In this document: piece after piece, positions 3,384 through 60,300 of the stretch
Layout: each line of letters starts with the position of its first letter
How positions within the stretch are numbered: the first letter of the stretch is position 1
DNA from: Eledone cirrhosa
Taxonomy: Eukaryota
Length of the DNA stretch: 64,000 nt
NCBI GenBank assembly: GCA_964016885.1
Contig: OZ024743.1
Span: 17,422,001 to 17,486,000 of the forward strand
Reading direction: 5' to 3'
Made by a program: the position numbers and the translations under genes
Notes under the pieces: generated by a model
Databases searched by the model: none
Told to the model about the DNA's origin: nothing
Seen by the model: the letters and a program-made list of their open reading frames with translations, nothing else

Positions 3384-3566
3384 GTAGGACAGAACACACA
3401 AAATAAAATCCCAGTCACTGAGGAGGTCACAGAATGTGTGACAAAAGCACTTTCACAATATATTAAAAATACCTACGATTATCGCACCAACCAACCAACC
3501 AGACAACGAACCGGAAAAGGGAGCGTGGATTTTATTGGCTTCATGTTCCTCCCAATTTATAGCAAT
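3384..3566 (+). mobile_element. Solo 3' fragment of the PLE family at 41811-46499, with decayed hammerhead (3414-3456)
   Basis: Aligns by eye to 46257-46499 (ccagtcactgaNgaggtcac...gtgtgac; ctcccaaNNtataNcaata end); GAAA mutated to AAAA; ends in (TA)n. Confidence 0.75.
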
Positions 3567-5216: not shown

Positions 5217-6338
5217 TTTTATTAATAATATAATAAAAATCGTAAATTCTGAATAGAAGGCTTTTTTACCAGATATATGAGGGTTTATTTTCTTAAGTAA
5301 TATCAATCAGAATAGATTGATAATATGTACATCGTCAAATTTCACCAGCAAGTATTATTCCATATTACGTACATCACCGATTCTTCTTCATACAATATTC
5401 AATTTATAATGCTTTTCGAGTACGAGGTACCTCTAAGGCTATATATATATATATAGAGAGAGAGATATGTGTGTGTATATGTATATATAAATACATACTA
5501 TCTGGCCCGTCTGGCTGGTGTCCGGCTAGGTATGCCTGACCCCACCACACCACTGCAAAGATACCACACACCCTCCCGTATCACATTGTCCTTCCGACTT
5601 CGTAGCAAAGGAGAGGGCAAAACCCGAAGAACAAATTATACTACATCAGCACAGTCTGAGGACTCATGCAACAGCCAGTCGTCCCTCTGTTTCTCTCTCT
5701 CTTCTCTCCTCTATTACCCGCTTGACCGTCCCTCTGTTTCTCTCTGTCACTCTCCCTCTCTCCCCTCTCTCAACTCTCTCTGTTTAAATGTGTGTAGTGC
5801 GTAGTTTTACTAATCTGTCTCTTTCACTGTCTCTCTTTCACTGTCTCTCTTCCACTCTGCGTCTCTCTAAGAGGGTTCGCGCGCCTTTTGATGTATGTAT
5901 TACCTGCTTGTGTGTTGACCTAATTTGGATAAGGTTATCCTTTTAAAATAAACAATGTTTATGATAAAATGTAGCGGTAATTTGAACAAATATAAAAGAA
6001 GACGATCTATTATGGAGAGAGGGAAGAGCGACAGGGAGAGTAAAGCAGTTAAATTATAGAGAGGAGCAACAGATGCGAGCGAAGCCGATCTATTATAGAG
6101 AGAGGGAAGAGCGACAGAGAGAGTAAAGATAAGCAATTATAGTGAGGTGTGTACGATACATACATAATACATACATACGACGTCAGCTATTTCTAGTGGC
6201 AGGACATTGATCTGTCCACCCCTGCCTTCTGTCTTTACACACGGCACTAGACAAAGTTGGTTCCGTCCTCATTCACTCTCATGCGGGAACAGTTTTGTAT
6301 GGCGCCAGTTTGTGATTTGAACTCAGGAATTTCATATT

Positions 6339-6421
6339 CCTTCTGACGAGAATCCCCTTCTCAATGGTAGTCCGCCTCGATTATCCATTTATCTTGTGAT
6401 TTGAAACCGCGCGGTAAGGGT
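6339..6421 (+). ncRNA. Type I hammerhead ribozyme, family A1 copy 1
   Basis: CCTT-CTGACGA-GAATC...GATTT-GAAA-CCGCGCGG-TA-AGGG; palindromic helix III; predicted cleavage after GUA at 6416. Confidence 0.8.
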
Positions 6422-6825
6422 ACATATAGTAAGTACAGCGAACTTTTTAAAATTTATTTAACACTTTTTCTCTATTTGCTAAACCTTGATTTTATATGTT
6501 CTGGCTCGTTAATCTATTAACCTGCCATAGAATGACATTGGCATACGGTTGGATAATACTTGTGTCCCTATATGTATTTTCTACACGTAGGAACACATAC
6601 TTTATTATGATTAATCTCCCCTAGGCTTGAGATAACATTTTGGTCGTTTGAACTGCTGCTATTTCTAGTGACAGGACATTGACCTGTCCGTCCCTGCCTT
6701 CTGTCTTTACACACGGCACTAGACAAAATTGGTTCCTTCCTCATTCACTCTCATTCGGGAACAGTTTTGTATGGCGCCAGTTTGTGATTTGAACTCGGGA
6801 ATTTTATATTCTCCGAGCGAGAAGA

Positions 6826-6909
6826 ACCTTCTGACGAGAATCCCCTTCTCAATGATGGTCCGCCTGGATTATCCATTTATTTTATGATTTGAAACCGCGC
6901 GCTAAGGGT
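6826..6909 (+). ncRNA. Type I hammerhead ribozyme, family A1 copy 2
   Basis: ACCTT-CTGACGA-GAATC...GATTT-GAAA-CCGCGCGC-TA-AGGGT; one helix III mismatch. Confidence 0.7.
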
Positions 6910-6982
6910 ACATATAGTAAGTACACCGAACCTTTTAAAACTTATTTTAAAACTTTTTCTCTATTTCCTAAACCTTGATGTT

Positions 6983-8404: not shown

Positions 8405-8411
<7 letters not shown>

Positions 8412-9350
8412 AATTAGTATATCTAGTAACATATATATACACAGATACATATTTATGCTAGCAAATATATAGGTTTTGTCTCAGTAACTTTGTGGTTCAA
8501 TGCATGAGGATGCAGAACAATAATATGAGAGACGTAAAATAAGAAAATTATAAAATTAACTTACTTACTAAACTTTCACTCCAACTAATTAGTTTCTGAA
8601 AGGGAATAAACATAGTTTCCTAAGAAACGTACTGAATTATTTTTGTATAAGTTCCCTGTGTCGACGTATTGCCTGGAAACTTAGCTGAGAATAGACTTCC
8701 CTGATGACGAAAGGCTTCTCCGTACGGTTCTCAGGAAACTGTTTATTCCCTTTCAGAAACTAATTAGTTGGAGTGAAATTTTAGTAAGTAAGTTAATTTT
8801 ATAATTTTCTTATTTTACGTCTCTCATATTATTGTTCTGCATCCCCATGCATTGAACCACAAAGTTACTAAGACAAAACCTATATATTTGCTAGCATAAA
8901 TATGTATCTGTGTATATATATGTTACTAGATATACTAATTCTTTATAATTATCTCCAAATTATTTTGTCGAGCAAAAATTGGACAAAACTGCTACTATAG
9001 TAACGGTCCGGCCGCTGTCTTCTTAACAAACCACTCCTCTCTGATTGATCTCGATGTCACGTGATTGATTCTTTTGAATTTGCCACCGACGCAGTAGGCA
9101 GTGATTTTTTCAATGGCTTAGAATTTAGTCCACGCATTGCTTTTTTCCATCCACTGAATTATTTTTGTATAAGTTCCCTGTGTCCACGTATTGCCTGGAA
9201 ACTTAGCTGAGAATAGACTTCCCTGATGCCGAAAGGCTTCTCCGTACGTTTCTTAGGAAACTATGTTTATTCCCTTTCAGAAACTAATTAGTTGGAGTGA
9301 AATTTTAGTAGGTAAGTTAATTTTATAAGTTTCTTATTTTACGTCTCTCA
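8405..9350 (+). mobile_element. Retrozyme-like family B1: inverted 5' segment (8405-8631) plus tandem ~524 nt unit, between (TA)n tracts
   Basis: 8405-8631 is the reverse complement of ~8722-8946; 8631-8827 repeats at 9153-9350; HHR at each junction. Confidence 0.85.
8695..8774 (+). ncRNA. Type I hammerhead, family B1 (second copy at 9217-9298 has core CTGATGC)
   Basis: ACTTCC-CTGATGA-C-GAAAGG...CCTTTC-A-GAAA-CTAATTAG-TT-GGAGT; palindromic helix III; GUU triplet. Confidence 0.72.
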
Positions 9351-9370
9351 TATATATATATATATATATA

Positions 9371-10047
9371 TATGATTCATCGAGCGCTTGCCACACATAT
9401 CGGACGTTGATTTTCGTTAATTCCTGAGCTGAAAACGATTCTCGCTAATTTATATTTGTATTAATCTCCAGAGTCTAGCTATTGAGCAGTTAATTTTATT
9501 GATTTTTTCAGTTACTTATATTGACTGTTGAATAGCTCTGTTATATTTAACCATTCTGTCGAGAGCTTTATTCGATTTGTGATATTTTGCATTCTAGCAA
9601 TAATACACAACTGAATCATTCGCTTAATAGAGGTGTTACCTCCCTTGCTGAATCCCACGAGGGGTCAGTAATAGCCACATTATCTATAGCATCTTGGAGC
9701 AAAAACCCGTTGATAACACGACTGCCTTGTTCATCATCTCACCAGAAGCCCAACATTCTTTATGTAGGCGGACAGTAACTGATTTGGAGTCGCAGAAACC
9801 AATACTGGATTTTACCATCAGTCCAGGGTCCGGGAAAGTATCAACACATATATTTTTATTGTTTGACCCGAATTACTTGGTCGTTTTGTTTTGGCTGTGC
9901 GGATGATATGTTTAATCATCATCTCAGTGTGTTTGGCCCTTAACGTATGTTGTAGCTCTGATTCATATGATTCATCGAGCGCTTGCCACACATATCGGAC
10001 GTTGATTTTCGTTAATTCCTGAGCTGAAAACGATTCTCGCTAATTTA

Positions 10048-10051
<4 letters not shown>
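9371..10051. mobile_element. ~680 bp non-coding insertion in (TA)n with ~85 bp terminal direct repeats (595 nt period)
   Basis: 9371-9457 matches 9966-10052; (TA)n on both sides; no canonical HHR found. Confidence 0.7.
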
Positions 10052-10106
<55 letters not shown>

Positions 10107-10285
10107 GGATATGTGTTCCTACACGCACAAAGCGCTAAGGGACACATGTATTGTCCAACCATATGCCAATGTGGTTCAATGGCAGGTTAATAAATTAACG
10201 AGCCAGAACATATATAATCAGGTTTAGCAAATAATGAAAAAGTTTCAAAATAAATTTTAAAAAATTGACTTTACTTACTATAGTT

Positions 10286-10369
10286 ACCTTTACCGAATCG
10301 GTTTCGAATCTCAAAAATAAACGGAGACCATACGGCCTTCATTGCAAAGAAAGATTCTCGTCAGAAGGT
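10286..10369 (-). ncRNA. Type I hammerhead, family A2 (inverted copy)
   Basis: Reverse complement of the 10837-10921 motif; core intact. Confidence 0.82.
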
Positions 10370-10836
10370 TCTTTTCATTCGAAGAATATGAAATTCTTGA
10401 ATTTAAATTACGAACTAGCGTTATCCAAAACTGTTCCCGAGATGAGAGTAAATGAAGTGGAATCAATTTTTTCAAGGGCCGAAAGTAAAGATAGAGGCAG
10501 AGGGAGGTAGGTCAATCGGCCACCACTATCACTAGCAGCAGTCGGAACGACCAAATTTGTTCTCAACATATAGGAGATTAGTAATAATAGGATATTCCTA
10601 CACGCACAAAGCGCTAAGGTATTACTATTCTCCTCAATGTTGAGAAAAAATTTGGTCGTTCCGACTGCTGCTAGTGATAGTGGTGGCCGATTGACCTACC
10701 TCCCTCTGCCTCTATCTTTACTTTCGGCTCTTGAAAAAATTGATTCCACTTCATTTACTCTCATCTCGGGAACAGTTTTGGATAGCGCTAGTTCGTAATT
10801 TAAATTCAAGAATTTTATATTCTTCGAATGAAAAGA

Positions 10837-10921
10837 ACCTTCTGACGAGAATCTTTCTTTGCAACGAAGGCCGTATGGTCTCCGTCTATTTTTTGAGATT
10901 CGAAACCGATTCGGTAAAGGT
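10837..10921 (+). ncRNA. Type I hammerhead, family A2
   Basis: ACCTT-CTGACGA-GAATCT...AGATTC-GAAA-CCGATTCGG-TA-AAGGT; perfect helix I and helix II base; canonical core; GUA at 10916. Confidence 0.88.
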
Positions 10922-11319
10922 AACTATAGTAAGTAAAGTCAATTTTTTAAAATTTATTTTGAAACTTTTTCATTATTTGCTAAACCTGGTTATATATGTT
11001 CTGGCTCGTTAATTTATTAACCTGCCATTGAACCACATTGGCATATGGTTGGACAATACATGTGTGCCTTAGCGCTTTGTGCGTGTAGGAACACATATCC
11101 TATTATTACTATTCTCCTCTATGTTGAGAAAAAATATGGTCGTTCCGACTGCTGCTAGTTATAGTGGTGGCCGATTGACCTACCTCCCTCTGCCTCTATC
11201 TTTACTTTCGGCCCTTGAAAAAATTGATTCCACTTCATTTACTCTCATCTCGGGAACAGATTTGGATAGCGCTAGTTCGTAATTTAATTCAAGAATTTTA
11301 TATACTTCGAATGAAAAGA

Positions 11320-11403
11320 ACCTTCTGACGAGAATCTTTCTTTGCAACGAAGACCGTATGGTCTCCGTTTATTTTTGAGATTCGAAACCGATTCGGTAAA
11401 GGT
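11320..11403 (+). ncRNA. Type I hammerhead, family A2 (second tandem copy)
   Basis: Same motif; GUA at 11398, 482 nt after the previous site. Confidence 0.88.
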
Positions 11404-11470
11404 AGCTATAGTAAGTAAAGTCAATTTTTTAAAATTTATTTTGAAACTTTTTCATTATTTGCTAAACCTG

Positions 11471-11567
<97 letters not shown>

Positions 11568-11589
11568 GTATATATATATATATATATAT

Positions 11590-18327: not shown

Positions 18328-19097
18328 TCAACCAAAACACAAACTACACATATACACACACGCTACATACGTACGAACCCGCATACTCACACACACGCAA
18401 AACTCACGTATACACATAACCATATGCACATGTACCAGTATATACAATATAATACATACGCCTATACCATATACAAGCAAATATACGTACGAGAAAGTAT
18501 ACGTCCCTTCACAAAACATACAGGTAATATAGAGTATTTCCAGGGCTTCAGCGGCGCAGAGGTCGCATGGTCTTTTATATCCGTTATTCGATCTAGCCCT
18601 AGCTAGGATCTCCCAGTGTAATTTATATTGGGTGTAGTTGACTTTTAGACTCCAGATATAAGCTGAAAGTGACATCACGTTCTTTCTTAAAGGGTTAAGA
18701 AAAGAATGGGTATGCATGTACAGACGCTGCTTGAATCTATTGGCGGTTAATCCTATGTAGCCGGTACGGGACGTGGGTGATGCAACATTACATTTGTAGA
18801 CAATGTTACTAGAGTTACGGATAGGGGCAATGAACCCGATTCCTACAATTACAGTTAGTACTAGCTTCATGGTTGCACGTGTTCCTACGGCTAGCTAATT
18901 TAGCTAAATTTGAAGCTGTGATGTTATGTGCAAGGTTAGGAGTGGTAGAGTAGAAATATTAATGGTATTTCTATTAACAATTGTATTATATTTATGTGCT
19001 GGGGGAAATGCTTCATAAGAAGGGAGAGAAAGATCTTAGCTAATGGTGTGGCCATGTCCATATTATATGGGGGGTTATACCATATAATGTGTCGGGA
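18328..19097 (-). pseudogene. PLE 3' fragment (linker plus GIY-YIG endonuclease), decayed
   Basis: NIVYKCNV...YIGLTANRFKQR...H...LSAYIWSLK...W...CDLCAAE; upstream IWYNP motif near 19080. Confidence 0.8.
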
Positions 19098-20250: not shown

Positions 20251-20760
20251 TCCACCTGTTTGCTGAAAATCATAAAATCATGAATGTTTATCATGAATGT
20301 TTATCTCCCTTGTTTGCTGAAAATTTAAATAAGTGAGATTGTCATTACTCTAAAACAATAGGGTAAGGTGTTCAAAATGCTTTTAATTAAGCATACATTG
20401 TATTGCAAAATACACTATATATACATACATATATATATCGTTATTTCAGAGAATCAATTCCAATTTTCAATTTCTGCTTGACCGGCAACGTGATCATTAC
20501 TAGAATTCTATAAGAATCAAACATTCATTATTTTCAGCAAACAGGTGGAGTACTTAGCTTTGATAAGTACCAACAAGTACGAAACAGAGCTCTGTCAGCT
20601 TTATCTCCCCTGTTTGCTGAAAATTTAAAGTAAGTGAGACCGTCACTACTCTAAAACAATAGTCTTCGAAATGCTTTTATTTAAGTATACATTGTATAGC
20701 AAAATACACTATATATATATACATTCGTATATATATCGCTATTTCAGAGCACCAATTCCA

Positions 20761-22842: not shown

Positions 22843-23211
22843 ATGGTAGGTTTAAAACGAGCACGAGATACTAATTCTTTTACCTATTTCGGTTCCACTA
22901 CCACTTCCTTCAAAGCTAGATTTTATAATCACAAAACGTCTCTTAAATACCAACTTAAAAGAACTAACACGGCACTCTCGGAACTCATATGGTCCTTTAA
23001 AGACAAAAATATTAACTATAACATCTCTTGGAGGAAGGTTTGCTCCGCCTTTCCTTACCTGAATTCTTCCCTATCCAGAACATGTAATCTCTGCCTAGCC
23101 AATACATTTACCATTATATCTAATTTCAATTCTATAATAAATAGACGCACAGATTTATTTTCGCTCTGCTTGCATAAATCCCATAGAACATTCCATAAAG
23201 TATACAGCTAA
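22843..23211 (+). pseudogene. GIY-YIG endonuclease C-terminal remnant of a PLE
   Basis: YxGxT...FKxR..NH, LS..IW..K and CxLC motifs shared with the fragments at 18328 and 63570. Confidence 0.8.
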
Positions 23212-24924: not shown

Positions 24925-26036
24925 TTTTTTATTTCATAGAAGGAGCTTCTACAGGACTAGTACTGTTGCATTTAGATGTAATCTTCAGGAAACTGGGTGT
25001 CATATTAAGTTCTGGTATTTATACATTTAGGTAGTGTAAGGGAGGGGTGGTGGGAGGGGGGGGGGCAGTATTTACATACACAGGACCACTTCATGGCACA
25101 AGCCGTTTTTTCTTTGGGGAGTGGTCAATTAGCCAGAGTGCTTTTTTGAAATAAATAAATATGTAAATAAATAAATAAATGAATAAATAGAAAAAAGAAT
25201 AAATAGATAAAATAAATAAAAAAATAAATAAATGAATAAAAACCCCAAGAATAATAATTCAACAGATATATAGTAGGGAAATTTAGGTGGGTTGGTAATA
25301 GAAATTAAACATTTAACAAGACCGAATCATGGCACAGACTGGGGTGAGTGGTCAAGTTAACATACAAGCCACAGGTGGCCAGAGTGTTTTTGTAGGATGG
25401 AAAGAATAAAATATATTTACATACTCACAACCACATACAAAAACACTTACACACACATATATACCCATATATATATACATATATACATACATATATATGT
25501 GTATGTGTTTGCACACCTACACATTCACACACATACACATATATATATTCATATATACATATATATATATATATACACACACACACATATGTGTGCGTAT
25601 ACACATACACATACACACACATACATATACACACGCACACACATACATACATACATACACATATATACATATATACAGAAGAAAAACACAAACACACAAA
25701 TATACACACACACGGATACACATACACACAAATATATATCTACACATACACGCGTGCGCATACACATACACATATATACATATATATATACATATATATG
25801 TATACACATATATATATATATATATATATACACCTTCTTGTACGTATGTTTTTCTCGTGTAAACTATACTATGCATACACATACATACATATACACATAC
25901 ATACATACACATACATACACACACACACAAACACATACATTCACACATACATATACATATATACACACACACACACACACATACTTATAAAATCTCATAT
26001 ATATATATATATATATACCTATACACATACACATAC

Positions 26037-26075
<39 letters not shown>

Positions 26076-26842
26076 CATACATATATATATATATATATAC
26101 ATACATATATACATACACACACATACACATTTACAAGCAAACACGCATACATACACATACATACATACAAATAAGTACACATAAACGCATATGCACAAAC
26201 ACGCACTCGTTCGCACTCATACATGTGTCTATAGTATAAATGTAGTGGGACAAATTTTAATTTTAAATTTTAAATTTTAAACTGGGCCTGATAGAGGATA
26301 AAATAATTAATGTCACTATTAAGTTATTAATATTATCATCAAGTAATTAATTACTATTTATTATTTATTACTCATTCACTATTCGTTACCTATCTTTTAT
26401 CCCTTATCTATTCATTACCTAATCATTCACTCATAAATTAATAAATAAATGAATGAGTTAACTAACAAACAAACAAACAAACAGATAAACAAATAAACCA
26501 GTAAATAAGTAAATAAATAAACAAATAAATAAATAAATGGATAAATAAATAAATAAGTAAATAAAGTAACTAAATAAATAAATAAGTAAATAAATAAATA
26601 TACAGTTAAATAGATAAATAAATCATGAACGTGTGCGTGCAGCAGTTCATAACTGCGCGTCTGCAAACATGAGCAGGTATATACGTGAATTTCTGTGTGC
26701 GGCCACGGAACTTTACGCAGAGGCATACAACACAATATATAAGACCTGAAGGGGAGGAAAGAAGGTAATAATGAGAGATAGAGGGGAGGAAAGAGGGTAA
26801 TAATGACAGATGGAGGGACGAAATGGGATGAGTGTAGTTTGG

Positions 26843-27850
26843 TTAGATTTGTCTGGCGTCGGAACGAATGTGTGTGGGCGTCCAGCGAGTCTTAAAACTA
26901 TTAGAAGTCATCCCGATGTACGAGTTTCTTTTTTCATCGGGGCCTGAGAGTACATCGCATATATACACGAGATCTTTTTTTAGACAGTTGTTGTTGAGAG
27001 GGCAGGTCGTCTTATCAGGGCAATTGCAGTTGCTATCGGTTGCTGGATGGGCTTCGGAAAAAGTATACTTATTTAGCTTCTTGATGTTGTTGTTGGCTAA
27101 GTTTCTAGCTAGATTAGGTGTGGTAGAGTAAGAGAGTCTAATGGTATTCTTATTAAGGATAGTATAGTACCTATGTTGGGTGGGGAAGTATTTTTGTAAG
27201 AGAGTGAAGAACATTTTAGCTACAGGTGTTGAAACTTCACGGTTGAAGGGGGGGGGGGGGTTGTACCAGCTAATGTGCCTTCGCCTATTCTTCCTGGGTG
27301 GGCGTGGGGCTATAGTAAGGTAGGTGATCTTATCTCTAAAGCCGCTGCGGGCCAAGGCCTCGTTGTAATAGGGGGCTGCTGCTCTAAAGATATCTTCATT
27401 GGCGGCGAGGCTAGATATCCTAATGGAGACACTTTTTACTAGGTTGTCTAATATATTTTTGGGGTGGTTAGAATTAACGTCTATATATCTAAGGGATTCA
27501 TTTGGTTTGTGGTACGGGTAGTAAAGAGAAGTTTCTAAGTCGAGGGTAACGTCTAGGAAGTTAGCTTTAGTTAAGTTCGAATCTAAGGTAATCCTAAGGC
27601 CTAAGTTTTTAAAGAAGGTGTAAAGGTTTTTCCTGAACCCATCCGTTGTCGTGGGGTTGAATTTGTGGAGAGCAAAGAGGCCGTCATCTCGGTAGAGACC
27701 GCCGGAGAGGCCTGTGAAGAGGGTCTTCAACCTGTGGAGGATGAACAGACCCACAAGTTCACTAATTTCAGCTGAGTCGTTAGCACCCATGCTAACGTCG
27801 AAGGGGGTCTCAGATTTGTTGTTGATCCAGTGGGATCTGTCATGGTAAAG
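26843..27850 (-). pseudogene. PLE reverse transcriptase C-terminal half, thumb and start of GIY-YIG (5'-truncated, frameshifted)
   Basis: FDVSMGANDSAEISELVG, LYRDDG, FLDVTL, PYHKPN..LRYIDVNSNHP, WYNPP, CNC...CPL..NC...LVYIC...YIGMT. Confidence 0.9.
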
Positions 27851-29074
27851 ACGTTACCCTCGACTTAGAAACTTCCCTTTACTACCCGTACCACAAACCT
27901 AATGAATCCCTTAGATATATAGATGTTAATTCTAACCACCCCAAAAATATATTAGACAACCTAGTAAAAAGTGTCTCCATTAGGATATCTAGCCTCGCCG
28001 CCAATTAATATATCTTTAGAGCAGCAGCCCCCTATTACAACGAGGCCTTGGCCCGCAGCGGCTTTAGAGATAAGATCACCTACCTTACTATAGCCCCACG
28101 CCCACCCAGGAAGAATAGGCGAAGGCACATTAGCTGGTACAACCCCCCCTTCAACCGAGAACTTTCAACACCTGTAGCTAAAATGTTCTTCACTCTCTTA
28201 CAAAAATACTTCCCCACCCAACATAGGTACTATACTATCCTTAATAAGAATACCATTAGACTCTCTTACTACCTCACCTAATTTAGCTAGAAACTTAGCC
28301 AACAACAACATCAAGAAGCTAAATAAGTCTACTGTCCCCTCCCCCCTTCCCATTTCCGTCCCTCCATCTCTCATTATTACCCTCTTTCCTCCCCTGCTAT
28401 CTCTCATTATTACCTTCTTTCCTCCCCTCCAGGTCTTATATATTGTGTTGTATGCCTCTGAGTAAAGTTCCGTGGCCGCACACAGAAATTCACGTATATA
28501 CCTGCTCATGTTTGCATACGCGCAGTTATGAACTGCTGCACGCACACGTTCATGATTTATTTATCTATTTAACTGTATATTTATTTATTTATTTATTTAG
28601 TTACTTTATTTACTTATTTATTTATTTATCCATTTATTTATTTATTTGTTTATTTATTTACTTATTTACTGGTTTATTTGTTTATCTGTTTGTTTGTTTG
28701 TTTGTTAGTTAACTCATTCATTTATTTATTAATTTATGAGTGAATGATTAGGTAATGAATAGATAAGGGATAACAGATAGGTAACGAATAGTGAATGGTA
28801 AATAGTAAGTAATAAATAATAAATAGTAATTAATTACTTGATGATATTAATAACTTAATAGTGACATTAATTATTGTATCCTCTATCAGGCCCAGTTTAA
28901 AATTTTAAAATTTATAATTAAAATTTGTCCCACTACCTTTATACTATAGACACATGTATGAGTGCGAACGAGTGCGTGTTTGTGCATATGCGTCTATGTG
29001 TACTTATTTGTATGTATGTATGTGTATGTATGCGTGTTTGCTTGTAAATGTGTATGTGTGTGTATGTATATATG

Positions 29075-29165
<91 letters not shown>

Positions 29166-29208
29166 ATGTGTATAGGTATATATATATATATATATATGTG
29201 TATACATA

Positions 29209-29249
<41 letters not shown>

Positions 29250-30073
29250 ATGTGTATGCGCACGCGTGTATGTGTAGATATATATGTGTGTATGTGTATG
29301 CGTGTGTGTGTGTGTATATTTGTGTGTGTGTATATTTGTGTGTTTGTGTTTTTCTTGTGTATAAATGTATATATGTGTATGTATGTATGTGTGTGTGTGT
29401 GTATACGTATGTCTGTGTATGTGTATGTGTATACGCACACATATGTGTGTGTGTGTGTATATATATATATATGTATATATGAATATATATATGTGTATGT
29501 GTGTGAATGTGTAGGTGTGCACACACATACACATATATATGTATATATGTATATATATATATATGGGCATATATGTGTGTGTAAGTGTTTAAATATATGT
29601 GTGTGTAAGTGTTTTTGTATGTGGTTGTGAGTAAGTAAATATATTTTATTCTTTCCATCCTACAAAAACACTCTGGCCACCTGTGGCTTGTATGTTAACT
29701 TGATCACTCACCCCAGCCCGTGCCATGATTCGGTCTTGTTAAATGTTTAATTTTTATTACCAACCCACCTAAATTTCCCTACTATATATCTGTTGAATTA
29801 CTATTCTTGGGGTTTTTATTCATTTATTTATTTTTATTTATTTTTTTTTATTTTTTTATCTATTTATTCTTTTATCTATTTATTCATTTATTTATTTATT
29901 TACTTATTTATTTATTTCAAAAAAGCACTCTGGCTAATTGACCACTCCCCAAAGAAAAAACGGCCTGTGCCATGAAGTGGTCCTGTGTATCTAAATACCC
30001 CCCCCCCCCCTACCACCACCCCTCCCTTACCACTACCAAAATGTATAAATACCAGAACTTAATATGACACCCA

Positions 30074-30122
30074 GCTTCCTGAAGATTTCATCTGAATGAA
30101 ACAGTACTAGTCCTGTAGAAGC
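30074..30122 (+). ncRNA. Type I hammerhead, family D (mirror copy at ~24945-24993 decayed, GCAA)
   Basis: GCTTC-CTGAAGA-T-TTCA(tc)TGAA-T-GAAA-CAG(tactagtc)CTG-TA-GAAGC. Confidence 0.75.
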
Positions 30123-41596: not shown

Positions 41597-41806
41597 TAAT
41601 GTATAAAAATCAATACAATATAATTACCTCATTACCAGAGGTTTCCCGAATGAGGCGAATACGAAATAAACGTCTTCATTCGTTCGTCAGACGAGGCAAT
41701 ATATTGCCTCGTCTGACGAACGAATGAAGACGTTTATTTCGTATTCGCCTCATTCGGGAAACCTCTGGTAATGAGGTAATTATATTGTATTGATTTTTAT
41801 ACATTA
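41597..41806. repeat. Perfect 105 bp-arm palindrome carrying two complete hammerheads back to back
   Basis: Centre at 41701/41702; plus-strand HHR 41707-41776; minus-strand mirror 41627-41696. Confidence 0.9.
41707..41776 (+). ncRNA. Type I hammerhead ribozyme
   Basis: CCTCGT-CTGACGA-A-CGAATGA...TCATTCG-G-GAAA-CC(tct)GG-TA-ATGAGG; GUA triplet. Confidence 0.78.
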
Positions 41807-42007: not shown

Positions 42008-42210
42008 TGGGGATACTTTTCTTTGTTTTTGTGCCTCTCCTTTGTTCTCTCCTACGCCATTTTGTTTCTGTGTGTCTGTGTTGTGCGCTCAGTCTGCGCA
42101 TGCGCCACATCCGGGTGTCTGTGTGTGTTTATATTCGTTTATTTATTTGTTTATTTACATGTTACAGGTTGGTTGTTTGTTCTATTGGCGTGTCTGTTTT
42201 CATTTTGTCC

Positions 42211-45200
42211 TTAATTGTAAGTTGTGATGTTTCTGTTCCACTCATATTTTCTATTTAATTTTGGTTGTAATTCTTTTATGTTTATTGCCTCTGTGATTTG
42301 TCTAAACATTGCGTCTTTTCTGTGTGTAGATTCTATTTTTATTTCTATGTTCTCTAATTTACCCTTATGTTCTATTTTAGCATGTTTGTAGAGTACAGAT
42401 GATTCTTTACTCTCTTGAAGGTCTCGCCAGTGTTCATTTATCCGTTCCCCTACACTGCGAGCTGTTTCACCTATGTACACTATATTTTTGTCTCTACATT
42501 GTCCTTCAGTACATCTTATGCTATATACTACATTTCTAGTGTTACAGTTAATATGGGGGCTTAATTTACAGGTTATACATTTCTTATCTATACAGGGGGG
42601 TCTTTGAAAAGGGTATGTCTTGCTAATAAGTGTTTTTACGGAGGTACCTGATCTTTCTACTATCTTAATATTGAGTTCATGTTTATCTAGGGCCCTTCTA
42701 TATTTGTAAGCTAATTCACCTCTAGGGGTTGTATCGATGAACATTACACTCTGGTATTTATTGATATCATACCATGAGTTTATTCTATTAGTCTTATTCC
42801 TAGTTCTTTCTATTCTATTCCAAAATTTGCTCCTATACAAGGGGCAGGTTCCATTTGTGTCATTATTTACCATTTTTCCCATTTGGTTCTGGCTCCTCTA
42901 TACACTCTGATTTTATCTCTCTGATTGTAACCATAGAACTGCATACGGTGGATGAAGTGTTGTATGTGTCTCTCTAGTTCTTCGGGGTTGCACATGTGGG
43001 ACACGTTTCTCATCACCCGTACCAAATCCGCAATCAGTATGTTGATTTTGGTATGGTCCGAAACAGCTGAGTTTCGGTGGATCAGATATTTGGAAGTCAT
43101 GGATTTGGCATAATGGGAATGGAGGATTTGTTTTTTATTATTAATGGTATCTAACCAGAGCTCTGTGTCTAGTACAGGTAATCGATGTTTGGGGTGTTTA
43201 CTTGGGTAGTATATAGTAACTCTAATACTCTGGTGGATGGAGTTAGCTATTTGCTGGATGCTTTCCATTGTGTTTTTCTCTAATTCCTGACTGTTCTCTA
43301 GTGGGGGTGTTTTAACTACGATGGTTATGTCATCAACGTAGCGGGAGTACATTATGAGGGTTAAGGGTCTTCTAATTGTTCTTTAAGTTTAAGTTTAAGT
43401 CTACTGTCCCACCATACTATGAATAAGTTAGCTATGTGCCTGCAATGCTAACACCAATGGCTGCTCCTTCCTCTTGGGCATATGTTTTTCCATTAAATTT
43501 GAACATATGTTCCTTAAGGGTTAATTTTATGCTGGCCCCCACCGCATATGCAATCATTTTCTTCAGTTCATCGTTGTTTTCGGGTGTCCGTATGGCTCTG
43601 GTCCACCCGTTCCATCTATATGTGTGGGTTTTCTTGGCCATTGAGGTAATGGTAGGTGGTCTGCCTCTTGCTGATCTTGTAGGGCACAGGCTGCTAAGGT
43701 CATATGTGTCTAGGTAATTATTACTATAGGTAAGTTTGAGTAGGAGTCCCAGCTCACTGGTATCAATCCCACGGAACTCAACATTGTTCTCACTGATCAT
43801 TTCTACGCATTTCTCCACAGCAAAATCCACGTCAATAGATGGATACAGGGACACAACATCCATGCTACCTATTATGCAGTTTGTTAGGTCCCTAGATCGG
43901 TTACTCTCGCTGATTCTGCTGAGGAGGTCCTCCGTGCTGGCACATACATCTGGGGACATTTCAATCATGGGGCGTATGATCAGGGAGAGGAAGTAGGACA
44001 GTCTGTAGTTACTAGCCATGTTAGCTCCACAGACTGGCCGTGTTGGTGGTCCCGTAACAGGGTCACTGCCCGTTTTATGGTATTTTCGAAGCCCATACAA
44101 CGCCGGCACGTCATTGTTCCAGGCCTGGAAGTTGATTGCAGTCCTTTTGTTGGGCTGCATTATATTCGTCCACATCACCATATGGGCATTGAGGGCTTTT
44201 TCTCTATCCTCATGCTCATGTGGTGTTACTTCTCTTGTGTTAGTGATGTGGGGTTGCATTGCCTGGATGTAGTTTGGCAGGCTGTCAACCGACATTCTAC
44301 CAGACTTGTCTGTTGGAAAGCATGCTATCTCTCCATTACGCGAGCGCTGCATGAGCTTACGCAAGCCATTTGCAGATTTGTCTCCCAGTTGCTGGGCCTC
44401 CATTCTATTATGCTTCTTGCTATACTGTTCTATAATATTTCTAAGTTCGGATTTAGCTAAACTAAATTGTGCTCTGTGTGTTCATCGACCTGCGACGGCA
44501 ATTGCGTGCGTTTGTTAAATGGTAAAGTCGTGGCATGGACTCGTCACAGGTCGAACGACTTATCGGAGGGATTATAAAACGTAGAGTTTCAGGCTGTTGC
44601 TTTATGTGTACTAGTGCCATTGTTATTGTTAGTTGTGTTGTTTCTATTTCTATTTCCACCAACAACCTCATGGTTGTTTCTATGTCTCTCATTATTACTC
44701 CTGTCTCTTTCCACTGGCTCATTATTATTATCTACTCTATTTTGTGTGTCTGTGTGTTCGTCTTGGTTATTTTATTTGTCCATAGTCTCCCTTCCCCTTT
44801 TAATCCTATTACCTTCCCTTATTTCTGTGCTACTGTCATTACCTGTTTTCTGTGTCTGTGTGTTTGTTAAGATTGTGGTGGTGGTGAGAGGCATTGAATG
44901 TGTGTGTGCTGATGTTGTTGTTGATGTGTGCTGTTGTTGATGTGTGTTGTTGTTGTTGTCTCCGCGTGTGTTATTATTGTTATGTGTGTTGTTATTGTTG
45001 TTTGTGTCTGCGTATCTGTTGTTGTTGTTTCTGAGTATGTTATTAATGTTGATATGTGTGTTGTTGTTATTGTTGTTTGTGTCTGTGTGTCTGTTGTTGT
45101 TGGGATGTGTGTTGTATATTGGTGTGCGTATGTTGTTACCTTTGTTTTTGTTTTTGTTTTTGAGGCTCCAACGTAATTTTGTAAATGATTTTTCTATTTC

Positions 45201-45300
45201 TGACAAACAACTAATCATATTTACCTTCTTGAATGTCGCATATTTAGGCGGTAGTTGTAATATAGATCATTCATTAGGGTCTACTGCAGTGTTGCGGATT
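42211..45300 (-). pseudogene. Frameshifted PLE polyprotein (RT-thumb-GIY-YIG)
   Basis: PTDKSG, LYGLRKYHK, RPVC, SMDVVSLYPSI, QEEGAAIG, RYVDD, LPVLD, C..KCITC, NVVYSIRC...YIGET, RQITEA in ORFs 43432-44403, 42867-43352 and 42211-42882. Confidence 0.93.
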
Positions 45301-46965
45301 TGGTATGGGTGATGAGAAACGTGTCACGCATGTGCAACCCCATATATCTAGAGAGACACATACAACACTTCATCCACCGTATGCAGTTCTCTGGTTACAA
45401 TCAGAGAGATAAAATCAGAGTGTATAGAGGAGCCAGAACCAAATGGAAAAAAAATGGTAAATAATGACACAAATGGGACCTACCCCTTGTATAGGAGCAC
45501 ATTTTGGAATAAAATAGAAAGAACTAGGAATAAGGCTAATAGAATAAACTCATGGTATGATAGCAATAAATACCAGAGTTTAATGTTCATCGATACAACC
45601 CCTAGAGGTGAATTAGCTTACAAATTTAGAAGGGCCCTAGATAAACATAAACTCAATATTAAGATAGTAGAACGACCAGGTACCTCCGTAAAAACACTTA
45701 TTAGCAAGACATACACTTTTTAAAGACCCCCTGTATAGATAAGAAAGGTATAACCTGTAAATTAAGACCACATATTAACTGTAAAACTAGAAATGTAGTA
45801 TCTAGCATAAGATGTACTGAAGGACAATGTAGAGACAAAGATATAGTGTACATAGGTAAGACAGCTCGTAGTGTAAATGAACACTGGCGAGACCCTCAAG
45901 ATAGTAAAGAATCACCTGTACTCTACCAACATGCTAAAATAGAACATAAGGGTAAATTAGAGAACATAGAAATAAAAATAGAATCTACACACAGAAAAGA
46001 CGCAATGTTTAGACAAATCACAGAGGCAATAAACATAAAAGAATTACAACCAAAATTAAATAGAAAATATGATTGGAACAGCAACATCACAACTTACAAT
46101 TATGGACAAAATGAAAACAGACACGCACATATAACAAACAACCAACCTGTAACATGTAAATAAACAAATAAATAAACGAATATAAACACACACAGACACC
46201 CGGATGTGGCGCATGCGCAGACTGAGCACACAACACACACACAGAAACAAAATGGCGTAGGACAGAACAAAGGAGAGGCACACAAACAAAGAAAAGAATC
46301 CCAGTCACTGAAGAGGTCACATAATGTGTGACGAAAGGACGTTGACAATATATAAACAACTACCTGTTTGTGGAACCAAACAACCAACCGGAAATTTATA
46401 AATTCCTAAATTTATAAATTGATTATAATAAATTGAAGTTAAAGCAACTGGTGCGTGTGTTTCTTATTGGCAACATGACCCTCCCAAAGTATAACAATAT
46501 CGGTTTCAACACACGTTTTCAGATAAAGAATCTTGCTAAACAAATTCAAAAACGAAATATATATATATATATATATATATTTCAGTTTAGTAGTCAGTTA
46601 CAAATATTAAGCTCTAAGAAAATACTTCTGAGCATTACATTACAATTTAAAAATATATATGAACTAACACTAATGTGTTTTTTTTTGCAAAATGACAATC
46701 ATGTTTTATGTGTCCTTATCTTTAATTATTGTAACTGATTTTGGTCTTATATGTATCGGCTTTTTGCGGTGACGCTTCGTCCAAGCACACCACTCTTCTA
46801 AGTCATGCATGCTACACATGGATCGTTCTTGTGATATAGGTCGGTAGAGTTTATACTATTGATCTAATTCCTCTTTATAACGCCCTGGTGAGTCCTGCAA
46901 TTATGCAAGGACGAAACACTGTCAGCAAATAAAATTAATTGATGATGTAAGCGCTCTTTGTTTTC

Positions 46966-51165: not shown

Positions 51166-51170
<5 letters not shown>

Positions 51171-52497
51171 AAGAATGTATATCTAGTAACATATATATAC
51201 ATACAAATGAATATCGATGCTAGCAAATATATAGGTTTTGTCTTAATAACATTGTGGTTCAATGCATGGGGTTGCAGAACAATAATATAAGAGACGTAAG
51301 ATAAGAAAGTTATAAAATTAACTTACTTACTAAAATATCACTTCCAACTAATTAGTTTCTGGAACGGAGTAGATACATCTTCCGAAGAAGGTGTAGAGAA
51401 ACATCCCGTCATCCGGAAAGTCTATTCTCATATAAGTTCCAGGCAAATCGAGGACACTGGAAGCTTATTAAAAAATAAATCAGTGAATAGGAAATAGCAA
51501 AGCGTGGACTTACTTCCAAGCCATTGAGAAAATCACTGCCTCTGTGTCTGTGGCAAATTCAAAAAGAATCGAACACGTGACACCGAGGTCAATCGGTGGA
51601 AAGTGGGTTGTTAATAAGACAGCGGCCAGCCTACTACCGTAGAAGCAGTCATGGCCAGTATTGCTCGACAAATATTTTGGAGATAATAATAAAGTATTTA
51701 TATCTAGTAACATATATATATACATACAAATGCATATCGATGCTAGCAAATATATAGGTTTTGTCTTAATAACATTGCGGTTCAATGCATGGGGTTGCAG
51801 AACAATAATATAAGAGACGTAAGATAAGAAAATTATAAAATTAACTTACTTACTAAAACTTACTTACTTGCAACTAATTAGTTTCTGGAATGGAGTAGAT
51901 ACATATTAACTAATTAGTTGGAAGTGATATTTTAGTGAGTAAGTTAATTTTATAATTTTCTTATCTTACGTCTCTTATATTATTGTTTTGCAACCCCATA
52001 CGTTGAACCACAATGTTATTAAGACAAAACCTATATATTTGCTAGCATCGATATGCATTTGTATGTATATATATATGTTACTAGATATAAATTATTTATT
52101 ATTATCTCAAAAATATTTGTCGAGCAATACTGGCCATGACTGCTTCTACGGTAGTAGGCTGGCCGCTGTCTTATTAACAACCCACTTTCCACCGATTGAC
52201 CTCGGTGTCACGTGTTCGATTCTTTTTGAATTTGCCACAGACACAGAAACAGTGATTTTCTCAATGGCTAGGAAGTAAGTCCACGCTTTGCTATTTCCTA
52301 TTCACTGATTTATTTTTTAATAAGCTTCCAGAGTCCTCGCTTTGCCTGGAAACTTATATGAGAATAGACTTTCCTGATGACGGGATGTTTCTCCACACCT
52401 TCTTCGGAAGATGTTTCTACTCCATTCCAGAAACTAATTAGTTGGAAGTGATATTTTAGTAAGTAAGTTAATTTTATAATTTTCTTATCTTACGTCT

Positions 52498-52500
<3 letters not shown>
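51166..52500 (+). mobile_element. Retrozyme-like family B2: inverted block longer than one unit (51166-51905) plus direct block (51908-52500), in (TA)n
   Basis: Homologous to 8405-9350; HHR at 52368-52449 (+) and 51340-51421 (-, core CGGATGA). Confidence 0.88.
52368..52449 (+). ncRNA. Type I hammerhead, family B2
   Basis: ACTTTC-CTGATGA-C-GGGAT...ATTCC-A-GAAA-CTAATTAG-TT-GGAAGT; apical CTTC-TTCG-GAAG hairpin in helix II. Confidence 0.75.
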
Positions 52501-53353: not shown

Positions 53354-55327
53354 GATAGATAGATAGATATATTAGATATATATATAGATATATATATATA
53401 GACACATAAAGGGCAATTTATATCTGTTTGTGTGTTTATTTGTGAACATAAAACTCAAAACCTACCAAACAGATCTTGATGAAGCCTGACATGCGTGTGG
53501 CTCTCAAGCCTATTTGATATTTTACGTACATTTCCTTTTCATCAAAGGGTTCCCCGATGGCTCAAATCCCCGCTGAAAACCCCCGTCGAAATTATCAGCA
53601 AATTTCAATATTAAAACACCATAATGGGGATTAAACCCCCTATCTATATACCTAAATGGTAATTTCTGTCTGTTGGTGTGTGTGCGTGTGTTTGTGAACC
53701 TAAAACTCAAAACCTACCAAATCGATCTTGATGAAACGTGTTTGTGCCTCATACCCGTTTGATTTCTTACGTACTTTGAAGTTCAAAATAATCGATAATT
53801 TCCAGTCTGCCTTGATTTTTTTAAATTGAATAGGAAATTTGTATGCAAATGCTGATATGAATGTTATTTTAAGCCATAACTTTCAAAGGTCTCAACCAAT
53901 TTCCTTCAAATTGCTTTTTTGCTGACGAAAATTCTCCAGACCACTCAAGCAAAGCGGAAGCTGAGTTTTGATTAACTGATGAGCGAAATTTGGCTTCAGC
54001 TGTTGTGGGCTTAAAATGTCTCCATAAATCAACTTAATATTCTATGCTTGCTGTAACATGTATATTTGCTCTGAGAGGCATTGGGCATTTTAATGGGAAC
54101 TAGGAATATACCCGATTCCGAATATTACCGGGTACCTCAGCTGATATTTCTTTAGACTTGCATTTAAATTCGTGATGTATATACTTGTATGTTATACCAC
54201 CCGGTGAGATATGATGTTGTGCTTCCACCACTCCGCTAACTAATGGTCTTATTCCGAGATTTATATTTTCCTCTATGAAAATATATATAATTCACCGACT
54301 ATACACATCTTACATTTTTGCCTAACAACTGAATATAAAGATTAGAATATCAACTACAATAACTGTAATAGAAACAGAAGACAACATTGCTATGTACTTT
54401 CACCTAATGCTAAATGTGACTTTATTCACATTTTATCGTATATGAATCTATTATGACTTTAGAGGTATTAAGGTATTCAGAAATAGGCTATGTGTATATA
54501 ACCGCCCTTCAATACTTTCAGTGAATTGTAAATTTCCAATATATATGTACCTCATAAAATGAATTTAAATTCCATACGAATCCCATTGGATCGGTAATCA
54601 CAGCAATTATATATAATAATAACTTTTCATAATTCTTGAACACGTGAAGTTATGTCATGGATTTGGGACGTCCAATAGTTGTCTTAAAGATCCACATCAT
54701 TTTCAATTACCTAGGCAGTATTACTAGATCATGAGTCCAGATGCATTAAGGATAGTCAGTATTGGGAGAATGAATTCAATGAAAACAGCGGATGAGATGG
54801 CGAGAGATGCTAGAGATGACCAAGAAAGTAAGGGCTAGGAAGGGCTCGGAAGAGATCCAAGAGAAATACGACGGATGTGATGAGACTTTATTACATAGAC
54901 AGAGGCAGAGAAACAGAAGAGGAGATGAAATGAGTTGAATTGTAGGATGGTCCAAATATACAAGAAACATACTGTATTTAAGATTTATGCAGTATTGATA
55001 GGATCAATAAAAAAATAGAAAATAACGGGAATATGGTACACGGAGTGCAAGGAAAAAAATTAAATAACACTTGTTACTTAGAAGTGCATATGTATTTGAA
55101 ATGATGTTCAGTTACTATATTTTGATTTTGAACATAGACAACGAAGATCTATGTATAGTAAACACATATTCGTCATTGTCGTTACACATTTACAGTTAAG
55201 GTAATAGAATGTCATATACACACATCTATCACATACACAAACACACACACACAAACACACACACACATACACACACACATACATACATACACACACACAC
55301 ACATTCATACGCGTACACGTAGTTGTG

Positions 55328-55371
<44 letters not shown>

Positions 55372-55373
<2 letters not shown>

Positions 55374-56812
55374 AGAAAGTATGACTCCGACGGCAGAGCT
55401 CAAGCCGTTCCCCCAACAATTTATTTTGGAAGGACTCAAACTAGTACTGGAGAAAAACCACTTCCTTTTTGATAACGAACTATATTTACAGATAAAAGGA
55501 AGAGCCATAGGCACCAAAGTGGCCCCAACATATGCAACACTCGTTAAAGGCCACCTGGCGACATTACATTCCATACTGCAGGAATCATTCAATCATGACT
55601 TCGCCACCTACATTAATCACAACTGGAAACGCTAGCTAGACGACTGCTTCATCTTCTGGAATAGAAGCCAAGAAGACCTTCACAGATTCCATTCCATCAT
55701 AAACAATCTTCACGAAGAAATAAAATTCACCATGGAATGTAATTAAAAGGAACAACCGTTTCCGGATATCTATATAATTAAGGAAGGGGAAAATATCAAA
55801 ACGGACTTATTTTACAAACCAACAGACACACACCAATACTTGAATTTCCGTTCAGCACACCCATCACATACCAAAAGGAATATTCCTTTTAACATAGCAA
55901 GACGCATCTGCACTATAGTGACACATCCAACACTACAGGAAAAAAGATTATATGAATTAAAAAGTTCCTTAAGAGACAAGAATATCCGGTGAACCTCATC
56001 AACACAGCCATTTCCAACACTGAGAAAAACAAAGCAACAAAATAGAATGGAAAAAACAGTTATACCTTTCGTCATCACTCACAATCCAAGGAACTTCAAC
56101 ATTGTAAAAGCCGCCAAACAATACCTTCCGATTCTCCAGCAGTCCCCCAAAATGAATGCACTCATAAAATACGCACACATTATATATAGTAGACGCCAAG
56201 CACCCAACCTAAAGAAACTGCTTACCAAGGCAAAATTTCCGACGAATAATTGTTTCTACTTTGGGCACAAGGCCAGCAAATTAAACAGTGCATTACTGGT
56301 ACTTTATTTTATCGATTCCGTAAGGATGAAAGGCAAAGTTTACCTCGGCAGGATTTGAACTCAGAATAGCAAGAGCCGTAACTTTATGCGTCAAAGCATG
56401 GCGTCTGACCCTCTACCGATACTGCCACGTCTAATAATGAAGCAATCCAAGTTAAAAAATGAGGGGACTCTCGATGCGGAACTTGCGAACTCATTGAAGA
56501 GGGTGGACAAATCTCCTTTAAAAGCAACCAGTCTTTCACAGTTAATGCAAACATGTATTGCAAAACAAAAAAACTTGATTTACTGTGCAACCTGCCCACA
56601 ATGTAAAGAATACTACAATGGTGAAACCGGAACGGGTCTCCATGACAGAATTCGAGTACATAAACAACAAATTAGAGACCCCTCTGCCAGAAATACCACA
56701 TGAAGTGAACACTTCGCAACATGCGGACAGGGAAATTTCACAATGTTCCCCTTCTTTAAGATATGGTCGGACAACGAACACTTCCGAAAATATAAAGAAG
56801 AATTCTAAATAC
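55372..56812 (+). pseudogene. 5'-truncated PLE (Neptune-like) RT-GIY-YIG, decayed, interrupted by a SINE
   Basis: LEKNHFLF..ELYLQIKGRAIGTKVAPTYA, WKR*LDD, YKPTDTHQYL, HP, IPFNIARRI, NLIYCATCPQC...YNGETG; starts at (TA)n. Confidence 0.88.
56250..56431 (-). mobile_element. SINE inserted in the PLE ORF
   Basis: SINE core; aataat on both flanks (possible TSD). Confidence 0.88.
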
Positions 56813-59209: not shown

Positions 59210-60300
59210 TGTCTCACATAGAAAGGAACTGGAAGCGATATCTAGATGACTGCTTCATCCTTTGGCACGGAAATATCGAGAAACTTAAAGAATTTCACAC
59301 CCTTATAAATGGGCTCAACACGAATATTAACTTCACGATGGAATACAGACATCAACAACTCCCCTCCATCGACATCCTCATTACGATCAATAACAAAAAA
59401 TAGAAACAGACATATACTACAAGCCCGCAGACTCCAAGCAATATCTTGCTTTAAACCCTTGCCACCCTAGACACGTTAAAATGAATATTCCCTTCAACTT
59501 AGCCAAGAGAATCTGTACTATAGTCTCCAATAAAAACACCTGCTACTTACGGCTACAAGAACTAAAGGACACACTCATAGGCAGGGACTACCCTGCATCA
59601 CTAATTGACAATGGAATCCAACGTGCCCTAAAACGCAGTATTCAGGAGCTTAGACACCCTAAAGTAAATCAACCGAAACTAAAAGCTCTTCCATACATCT
59701 CCACACACAACCCACTCACAAATAAAGCCTTTGACACCATCCTCCAGAACATCCCTGTGTTGAAAAAGTACCATTGAATGAAGCAAATCCTACGAACACA
59801 CGATATCATAAAGAGCAAAAGACAATCTAAGTCACTGAAAAACATCCTAACTCATGCCAAAGTACTACCAACCACAACAATGAAACCCACAGTAAAAAAA
59901 ATGCTATAGACCCAACTGTGGCATAAGCATCGACCTAATAGAGGGTTCGGAATTCTATTTCAAAGAAGGACAACGTTTTATAGTAAAACACAATTTCACA
60001 TGCGCATCAGAAAATCTAATATATGTATTAACTTGCTCAGGTTGTCGAGAACAATACATAGCCCACACCAAAAACAGCCTCCGCCAACGCATGACTGTCC
60101 ATAGATCCCAAATTAAAATACGGGAATACAGGAAAATACCACTGTCTGAACACATTGGTACCTGTGGTGCCCAAAATCATCCCAACTTCAGAATCTTTCC
60201 CCTCTACAAATTTAAAGATAATGCCACCCACACCCAGCGCATCAGGAAGGAATCTTACTTTATTAAAAAATACGGACCCCATCTAAACACTTCTCCCTAA
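59210..60300 (+). pseudogene. 5'-truncated PLE (Neptune-like) RT C-terminus plus GIY-YIG, decayed
   Basis: WKRYLDDCF, INFTME, YYKPADSKQYL, CHP, IPFNLAKRI, NLIYVLTCSGC..QYI, RMTVHRSQI, RKESYFIKKY.P.LN. Confidence 0.88.

Follow-up and report, generated by a model that had tools for sequence, protein, structure and literature searches.

A 64,000-nt stretch of DNA, hereafter called the window, contains two related families of tandem repeats, A1 and A2, which probably represent a retrozyme mobilised by Penelope-like elements (PLEs) and carrying a type I hammerhead ribozyme for which bracing by a pseudoknot between helices I and II is predicted. This reading builds on the repeat units and their ends, a canonical catalytic core, three helices, a palindromic helix III, the anatomy of helix II, and a complementarity of two strands that tracks the families. 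A first-pass annotation of the window had recognised A1 and A2 as homologous hammerheads with an enlarged helix II and had attributed the enlargement to selection; its observation was confirmed and its interpretation is partly supported. The feature that would best explain the extension was absent from that annotation, namely the family-tracking pairing between the 5′ strand of the helix II internal loop and the strand upstream of helix I.

Organization of the A1 and A2 repeats

The source genome of the window is a 3.0-Gb animal genome that is rich in microsatellites. A1 forms a non-coding insertion of approximately 1.6 units of a 488-nt repeat (6186..6982, plus strand), whose 3′ limit lies 78 nt past the second predicted cut site and adjoins a (CA)/(TA)n tract. 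The A2 insertion is composed of an inverted copy with one hammerhead (10104..10586, minus strand; core from 10364, predicted cut at 10291) and a forward tandem of 482-483-nt units (10620..11472, plus strand). The long end of the inverted copy lies approximately +190 from its cut site and the short end of the tandem approximately +81 from the last cut site, and the whole is flanked by (TA)n microsatellites on the left (10046..10103) and on the right (11473..11589). Both families had previously been placed at 6186..6982, which is correct for A1 but not for A2, found at 10104-11472. No open reading frame of 120 aa was detected across the A elements, so these were classified as non-coding.

Measured from cut to cut, the unit is 488 nt in A1 (6416 to 6904) and 482 nt in A2 (10916 to 11398), the same values as the monomer lengths first proposed, and the two units share 76.9% identity over 493 columns. 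The best-scoring genome copies are 84-89% identical for A1 and 93-98% identical for A2, which is the youngest family. All of the strings quoted in the first-pass annotation were located in the window. In A1 these are CCGCGCGG (helix III, 6407-6414) and the apical hairpin strands AATGGTAGTC (6363-6372) and GATTATCCATT (6379-6389); in A2 they are CCGATTCGG (helix III, at 10906, at 11388 and on the minus strand at 10293-10301) and the apical hairpin strands ACGAAGGCC (10864) and GGTCTCCGT (10877).

Hammerhead motifs in the window

The elements of the motif follow one another in the order ACCUU, CUGACGA, a helix II of 52-53 nt, GAAA, a short helix III, UA and the 3′ strand of helix I. Helix II is 53 nt long in both A1 copies of the window and 52-53 nt long in all three A2 copies. 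The canonical core (C3 U4 G5 A6 N7 G8 A9, G12 A13 A14 A15, U16 H17) is present in each of these five copies. Judged from its sequence, the A1/A2 motif is a type I hammerhead with an open-ended helix I and three helices, and is predicted to cleave itself.

The first A1 hammerhead (6338..6421, plus strand) comprises the core at 6343-6349, helix II at 6350-6402, GAAA at 6403-6406 and a palindromic helix III at 6407-6414, with the predicted cut after 6416; a 16-nt deletion directly upstream of helix I has taken away its upstream pairing strand. The second (6826..6909, plus strand; core 6831-6837, helix II 6838-6890, GAAA 6891-6894, predicted cut after 6904) is preceded by an upstream purine strand (6819..6824, plus strand), complementary over 6 bp to internal-loop strand 6845-6850, but the closing pair of its helix III, C15.2-G16.2, is broken. 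The minimum free energy (MFE) structure of neither A1 copy is a hammerhead (z -0.08 and 0.10), and both copies are decayed.

The A2 hammerhead at 10837..10921 (plus strand) has helix I at 10837-10841/10917-10921, the core at 10842-10848, helix II at 10849-10901, GAAA at 10902-10905 and helix III at 10906-10914, with the predicted cut after 10916. Its upstream purine strand (10829..10836, plus strand) is complementary to internal-loop strand 10856-10863 at seven of eight positions, with one A.G mismatch. A second forward A2 hammerhead, including its upstream strand, occupies 11312..11403 (plus strand; core 11325-11331, predicted cut after 11398), and here 11312-11319 pairs with 11339-11346. In all three A2 copies the MFE structure is the hammerhead fold, with z of only -0.8 to -1.8.

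It had been suggested that a conserved, structured helix II of about 53 nt could be missed by standard hammerhead models. Indeed, an Rfam scan of the window, and of 10600-11470 separately, gave no hammerhead match at the A cores, as is expected with a 53-nt helix II; an Rfam match is not in itself defining. Elsewhere in the window, the scan returned a weak Hammerhead_HH9 match at 20543-20618 (22.6 bits, E 0.44), far under the gathering score. A near-perfect 100-nt palindrome at 41651-41752 carries CTGACGA and a downstream GAAA on both strands.

Distribution of hammerheads with a long helix II

The genome-wide pattern counts took a helix II of 40-64 nt. A pattern with the A-type flanks and a helix II of 44-60 nt matched the genome 1,746 times, while the reversed pattern gave 0 matches, and the A-type long-helix motif is thus not a product of chance. 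The same flanks with a helix II of 8-38 nt were found at seven sites, each of which, by eye, is a different deletion of the A-type helix. The extension is therefore kept, as had been supposed: 1,746 long copies stand against seven short ones that derive from unrelated single deletions. Relaxed patterns gave a further 98, 1,326 and 1,055 matches (reversed controls 10, 3 and 3), and the pattern of a 523-nt family, designated P, gave 7,885 (reversed control 0). The exact-pattern matches with a long helix II total about 12,000, and those in the reversed controls 16.

At least eight clades were distinguished among the matches listed (A, G/H, B/F, C, D, E, I and P; the labels are those of this analysis), with unit lengths, where measured, of approximately 483, 485 and 657-723 nt. 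In most clades, helix II consists of a basal stem of 5-8 bp, an internal loop of 5-9 nt and an apical hairpin whose sequence is free. Every family has a helix III sequence of its own, in each case palindromic or nearly so. The energy of helix III is -9 to -20 kcal/mol as a self-duplex and 0 to -2 kcal/mol as a hairpin, and this far greater stability of the self-duplex is as expected for dimeric cleavage (PMC4209133; PMC6765202).

The A families were considered as minimal hammerheads of PLEs, which are characterized by a base left unpaired between A9 and G10.1 and by a helix III that is minimal or absent. This assignment was rejected: in the A families G10.1 is paired directly and 2-3 bp of helix III follow A15.1-U16.1. 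An extra base between A9 and G10.1 is present in family P. In the window, family P occupies 8406-9360 and 51168-52500, with cores at 8701, 9223 (mutated) and 52374. Its copies there show an extra C before and an A after helix II, the GUU-type site is replaced by a palindromic helix III plus UU, and upstream pairing is seen as in A.

Contigs spanning helix II were also found in sequencing runs under four other organism labels, and one of them joins with a 485-nt period. No RNA run was among those listed as carrying the sequence. A metagenome scan for the long-helix pattern yielded 54 matches, none with both helix I and helix II. In one of these matches (L335) helix II measures 8 bp and the flank resembles GGGA/UCCC with a shift of one base, but by the criterion applied there is no helix I.

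Mobilization and relationship to Penelope-like elements

The ends of the A2 elements are recurrent. Among 77 ends examined, 32 lie at approximately +81 relative to the cut site and another 20 at +190-197, and almost all of these run into (TA)n; a further 20 continue as a tandem and five end elsewhere. A hammerhead pairs are mostly spaced 481-486 nt apart, and one A array is a 9-mer at 483-nt spacing. At a separate locus (L091-L092, G000:C3:88917000-88936500), about seven A2 insertions of 2.6 units each recur every 2.4-3.2 kb, probably by local segmental duplication.

Insertions of PLEs are described as tandem and inverted copies with a tail at one end and a preference for (TA)n (PMC8557442). 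The A elements display the same anatomy, i.e. a tandem plus an inverted 5′-truncated copy, fixed 3′ ends, a tail and a microsatellite target, but their tail measures about 110 nt, compared with the 30-40 nt given for PLEs (PMC8557442). Retrozymes have been proposed to be non-autonomous derivatives of PLEs (bioRxiv 10.64898/2026.07.22.740005). A1 and A2 were likely copied from an RNA circle by the enzymes of a Penelope-like retrotransposon. Multimeric transcripts would be cut at GUA, most efficiently as dimers held by the palindromic helix III, and the monomers would then be circularised. A Penelope-type reverse transcriptase (RT)/endonuclease would prime at a (TA)n target and copy the RNA circle for more than one round, in rolling-circle fashion.

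No autonomous PLE partner sharing the ends of the A elements was found: in a tblastn comparison of 11 window ORFs with 219 loci, none showed consistent linkage. Two loci situated beside a PLE with its own short hammerhead (L082 and L128) were discarded as linked partners, since a microsatellite in between marks them as separate insertions.

The window itself contains several PLE fragments, none of which could be linked to the A families in the comparison of 219 loci. One is a fragmented autonomous element at 42062-46252, with RT and GIY-YIG pieces at 42211-44481 (minus strand), enclosed in 379-nt inverted repeats. Short-helix hammerheads lie nearby at about 42003 (minus strand) and 46308 (plus strand), and the same core recurs near 3418. 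Another fragment, at 25000-30100, contains an ORF at 26843-27853 (minus strand) and is surrounded by inverted repeats that are long and nested; hammerhead-like cores occur near 24988 (minus strand) and 30079 (plus strand). Further RT/GIY-YIG-like fragments, belonging to several families, are situated at 59394-60300, 55162-56358, 63356-63802, 22843-23211 and 18328-18894. A hammerhead-like core with a 27-nt helix II is located near 62226 (minus strand), downstream of the fragment at 63356.

Compensatory changes in helix II

The first-pass annotation had drawn its case for covariation from three differences between A1 and A2. Two of these are not covariation: the helix III difference sits in the loop (CG versus ATT), and AGGGT versus AAGGT in helix I is a one-sided U.G/U-A change (UA 36, UG 8), both states being present within A1. 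Moreover, two families offer few independent changes. Changes on both sides of a pair did appear in a bigger alignment of genomic copies, as had been proposed there for checking the structure: with 44 A-type rows, compensatory pairs were found by pair counts.

These 44 rows were chosen by hand from 87 distinct candidates plus the window copies. In this alignment, 92.7% of the cells are paired, compared with 30-59% when the partners are slid. Both-sided changes occur in the basal part of helix II (AU 20/GC 15/UA 2; UA 22/CG 12), in the apical stem (UA 30/CG 13; GC 30/AU 5) and in one pair of the putative pseudoknot (AU 27/GC 10). An alignment of the B/F clade (34 rows used out of 40) likewise contains a pseudoknot pair with UA 16/CG 11/UG 6. 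All of these figures count copies, not events, each column representing one or two changes between subfamilies. Regional substitution rates inside families (in A2, 0.7-0.8% in the loop strands versus 2.7% elsewhere; in A1, 9.2% in the apical part versus 4-5%) are uninformative on selection.

Predicted pairing between the internal loop and the upstream strand

The 5′ strand of the internal loop of helix II is complementary to the strand directly upstream of helix I. The complementarity extends over 6 bp in A1, 8 bp in A3/A4, seven of eight positions in A2, 7-8 bp in G/H, 4-7 bp in B/F, 7-9 bp in C and 6-7 bp in I. The loop strand involved, the 5′ one, is unpaired within helix II in A, G/H, B/F, C, I and P.

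Upstream windows were compared with 5′ windows of helix II under 15 family labels, using fixed windows, with three artefact rows dropped and large families subsampled to 25. Own-family combinations gave -5.05 kcal/mol and cross-family combinations -2.70 kcal/mol (p ~1e-4), with the p values being optimistic because windows and representatives were set after the pairing had been seen by eye. The own-family partner was the best in seven of the 15 rows. In the same test four control window pairs were null, and the upstream strand against the 3′ side of the loop was marginal (p 0.049). Extension of helix I by pairing of upstream with downstream windows was null, as were downstream or further-upstream windows against the loop. 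In an exact permutation over eight clades, represented by 20 hand-picked intact copies, the true assignment ranked first among all 40,320, a result that is optimistic for the same reason.

Family P, which was added once the windows had been fixed, passes the pairing test. Its loop strand hardly varies, unlike the two stems that flank it, and the one subfamily with an altered loop strand carries the matching upstream change (L360, L364). Five P copies picked by hand for changes in the loop had no compensating upstream change, which is what neutral decay following insertion would produce. By the definition of a pseudoknotted hammerhead as having four or more covarying base pairs between the stem I and stem II sides, the motif qualifies, except in clade D and only weakly in E and A2.

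Several observations speak against the pairing. In A2 there is the A.G mismatch, the duplex reaches only -3.3 kcal/mol, and 13 cells are unpaired at that column. Clade D has no such pairing, clade E has only 4 bp, further up and in a different register, and the single-copy labels J, K, M and N do not pass the pairing test. A local hairpin in the upstream strand, noticed by eye as possibly conserved, was rejected, as it is not kept between A1, A2 and A3.

Two families show additional repeats around the loop. In family C (L250-L269), the same 7-nt pyrimidine run is present on both strands of the internal loop, and either could pair upstream. In family D (L106, L173-L180, L204), where a clear pseudoknot is absent, a 7-nt run following the basal part of helix II recurs directly downstream of helix I, so strand exchange with an extended helix I may be possible.

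Possible roles of the upstream pairing

Helices I and II lie side by side in the hammerhead fold. It follows that the strand entering helix I runs antiparallel to the 5′ strand of helix II, and its 3′ end should then meet the base of the internal loop. The observed register agrees, though its correlation across six clades does not reach significance (rho 0.72, p 0.10). The pseudoknot would keep helices I and II parallel, standing in for the usual loop-loop contact, and the apical hairpin would close the internal loop and stack on the pseudoknot. A brace of this kind is favoured by the partner being an unpaired loop strand in six clades. Stem I-II pseudoknots of other hammerheads are reported to speed cleavage 20- to >100-fold (PMC3088659). 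Against the retrozyme reading as a whole, eight of nine Xenopus retrozyme dimers tested showed no cleavage (bioRxiv 10.64898/2026.07.22.740005).

A hypothetical ENE-like triple helix is suggested by the 3′ strand of the loop, which is U-rich in A, G/H, C and I. Here the pyrimidine-rich 3′ strand of the loop would bind the purine strand in the major groove through Hoogsteen contacts (U.A-U, C.G-C), with B/F using an A-rich minor-groove strand instead. In A2/A3, G and H an A-tract does stand opposite U-rich loop strands; in families C, I and G, a G of the purine strand is matched by a C of the 3′ strand, allowing 4-5 possible triples; and the anatomy is that described for ENEs (PMC13541005). The clade-level test was nevertheless not significant, with 22 of 120 permutations as good, only 2-3 triples are available in A1 and P, and the register varies by family, which leaves this structure rather doubtful.

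The main rival explanation is an off-switch: the same complementary strands would form a nested hairpin in which CUGANGA and the beginning of helix II are buried, so that neither single units nor the circle would cut before a second hammerhead is present. This hairpin structure has the minimum free energy for A2, A3, B2 and G, lies within 1.3-3.2 kcal/mol of it in A1 and C, and could form before helix II is fully transcribed; in H1, F2, I, P and B1, on the other hand, it exceeds the MFE by 5-10 kcal/mol. Since pseudoknotted states are beyond the scoring of ViennaRNA, comparisons of the two are biased against the pseudoknot. Placement of the partner in an unpaired internal loop, seen in six clades, is needed by a brace but not by a switch, and we regard the switch as unlikely. 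Brace and nested-hairpin states may both exist.

These elements can be joined in one tentative, possible scheme, in which the loop would capture the upstream strand, forming an ENE-like triple helix in some families and an A-minor pseudoknot in others; folded instead as a nested hairpin, this pairing would be an off state that ties cutting to the formation of multimers. If so, Penelope-type hammerheads would have seemed weak in vitro partly because constructs were made without the 5′ flank, and the tertiary module would be one undescribed for retrozyme hammerheads.

It is quite improbable that the long helix II is kept for a non-catalytic role, for instance in binding the RT or in giving the RNA circle its fold, with the complementarity being secondary. 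The extension also forms in the MFE structure of the circular A2 monomer, where the core is unfolded, and the apical stem is free to vary in sequence and length. However, it is the match of loop and upstream strand that is conserved across clades and not the apical sequence, and the matched pair changes in A, B/F and P are not predicted by such a role. The view that the motif is an inactive relic with a neutrally inherited long helix fits the decayed A1 copies of the window but is very improbable, given the youth of A2 (93-98% identity) and the retention of core, helices, palindromes and pairing across clades whose flanks are 60-70% alike or unalignable.

Comparison with known hammerheads and retrozymes

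Reports describe Penelope-type and retrozyme hammerheads as poor cleavers that often lack the known loop-loop contact (PMC4209133, PMC7229834). The roughly 12,000 matches to the motif, which fall into eight or more diverged clades, name a specific tertiary contact that can be mutated, turning the matter of how such ribozymes reach useful rates, or stay off, into a simple mutant-and-rescue question. They also supply natural variants of a long, sequence-tolerant helix II, and show that descriptor and Rfam searches undercount animal hammerheads. In the literature searched on hammerheads, Penelope, retrozymes, ENEs and cephalopods, no description of this type I form was found; Lunse et al. 2017 (PLE hammerhead dimers) and the supplements of the retrozyme papers lie outside that scope and may show it.

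By the characters of their sequence, the A elements appear to work like a metazoan non-LTR retrozyme. Such retrozymes (PMC7229834; bioRxiv 10.64898/2026.07.22.740005) are similarly tandem non-coding units of a few hundred bases with one type I hammerhead each, a weak helix III and arrangements from monomers to multimers, in genomes that also contain PLEs. They differ in having a short helix II stem-loop, whereas helix II here is 48-62 nt long with an internal loop, and the tertiary contact predicted here is a Watson-Crick pseudoknot with the 5′ flank. The minimal hammerheads of PLEs (PMC4209133) resemble the A motif in being type I, with a 5-bp helix I, a small palindromic helix III suited to dimers, a basal helix II of 5-8 bp and a site near the 3′ end of the element.

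ENE elements of transposons and lncRNAs (PMC13541005) share with A2, A3, G, H, C and I a stem, a U-rich internal loop and a second stem facing an A-rich strand. In ENEs this strand is the 3′ tail, while here it lies upstream, and testing for a third strand gave no significant result.

Pseudoknotted hammerheads (Perreault et al. 2011, PMC3088659) have base pairing between stems I and II as a tertiary brace that speeds up cleavage; they are known in all three types and make up about 40% of representatives. Those are mostly microbial and stem II is often very short, with repetitive type I motifs excluded from the stem-length analyses; the form with an internal loop in helix II does not appear in the available text of that study.

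An architectural parallel is offered by type III hammerheads from insect genomes and from the HDV-like RNAs of toad and termite (PMC7936874), in which a short stem is followed by an internal loop of 6-10 nt and an extra hairpin of about 20 nt, and the 5′ strand of the internal loop base-pairs across to the other arm. The two arrangements are mirror images: the type III form extends helix I and pairs with loop II, whereas in the type I form described here helix II is the extended arm, and its predicted partner is the open 5′ flank of helix I.
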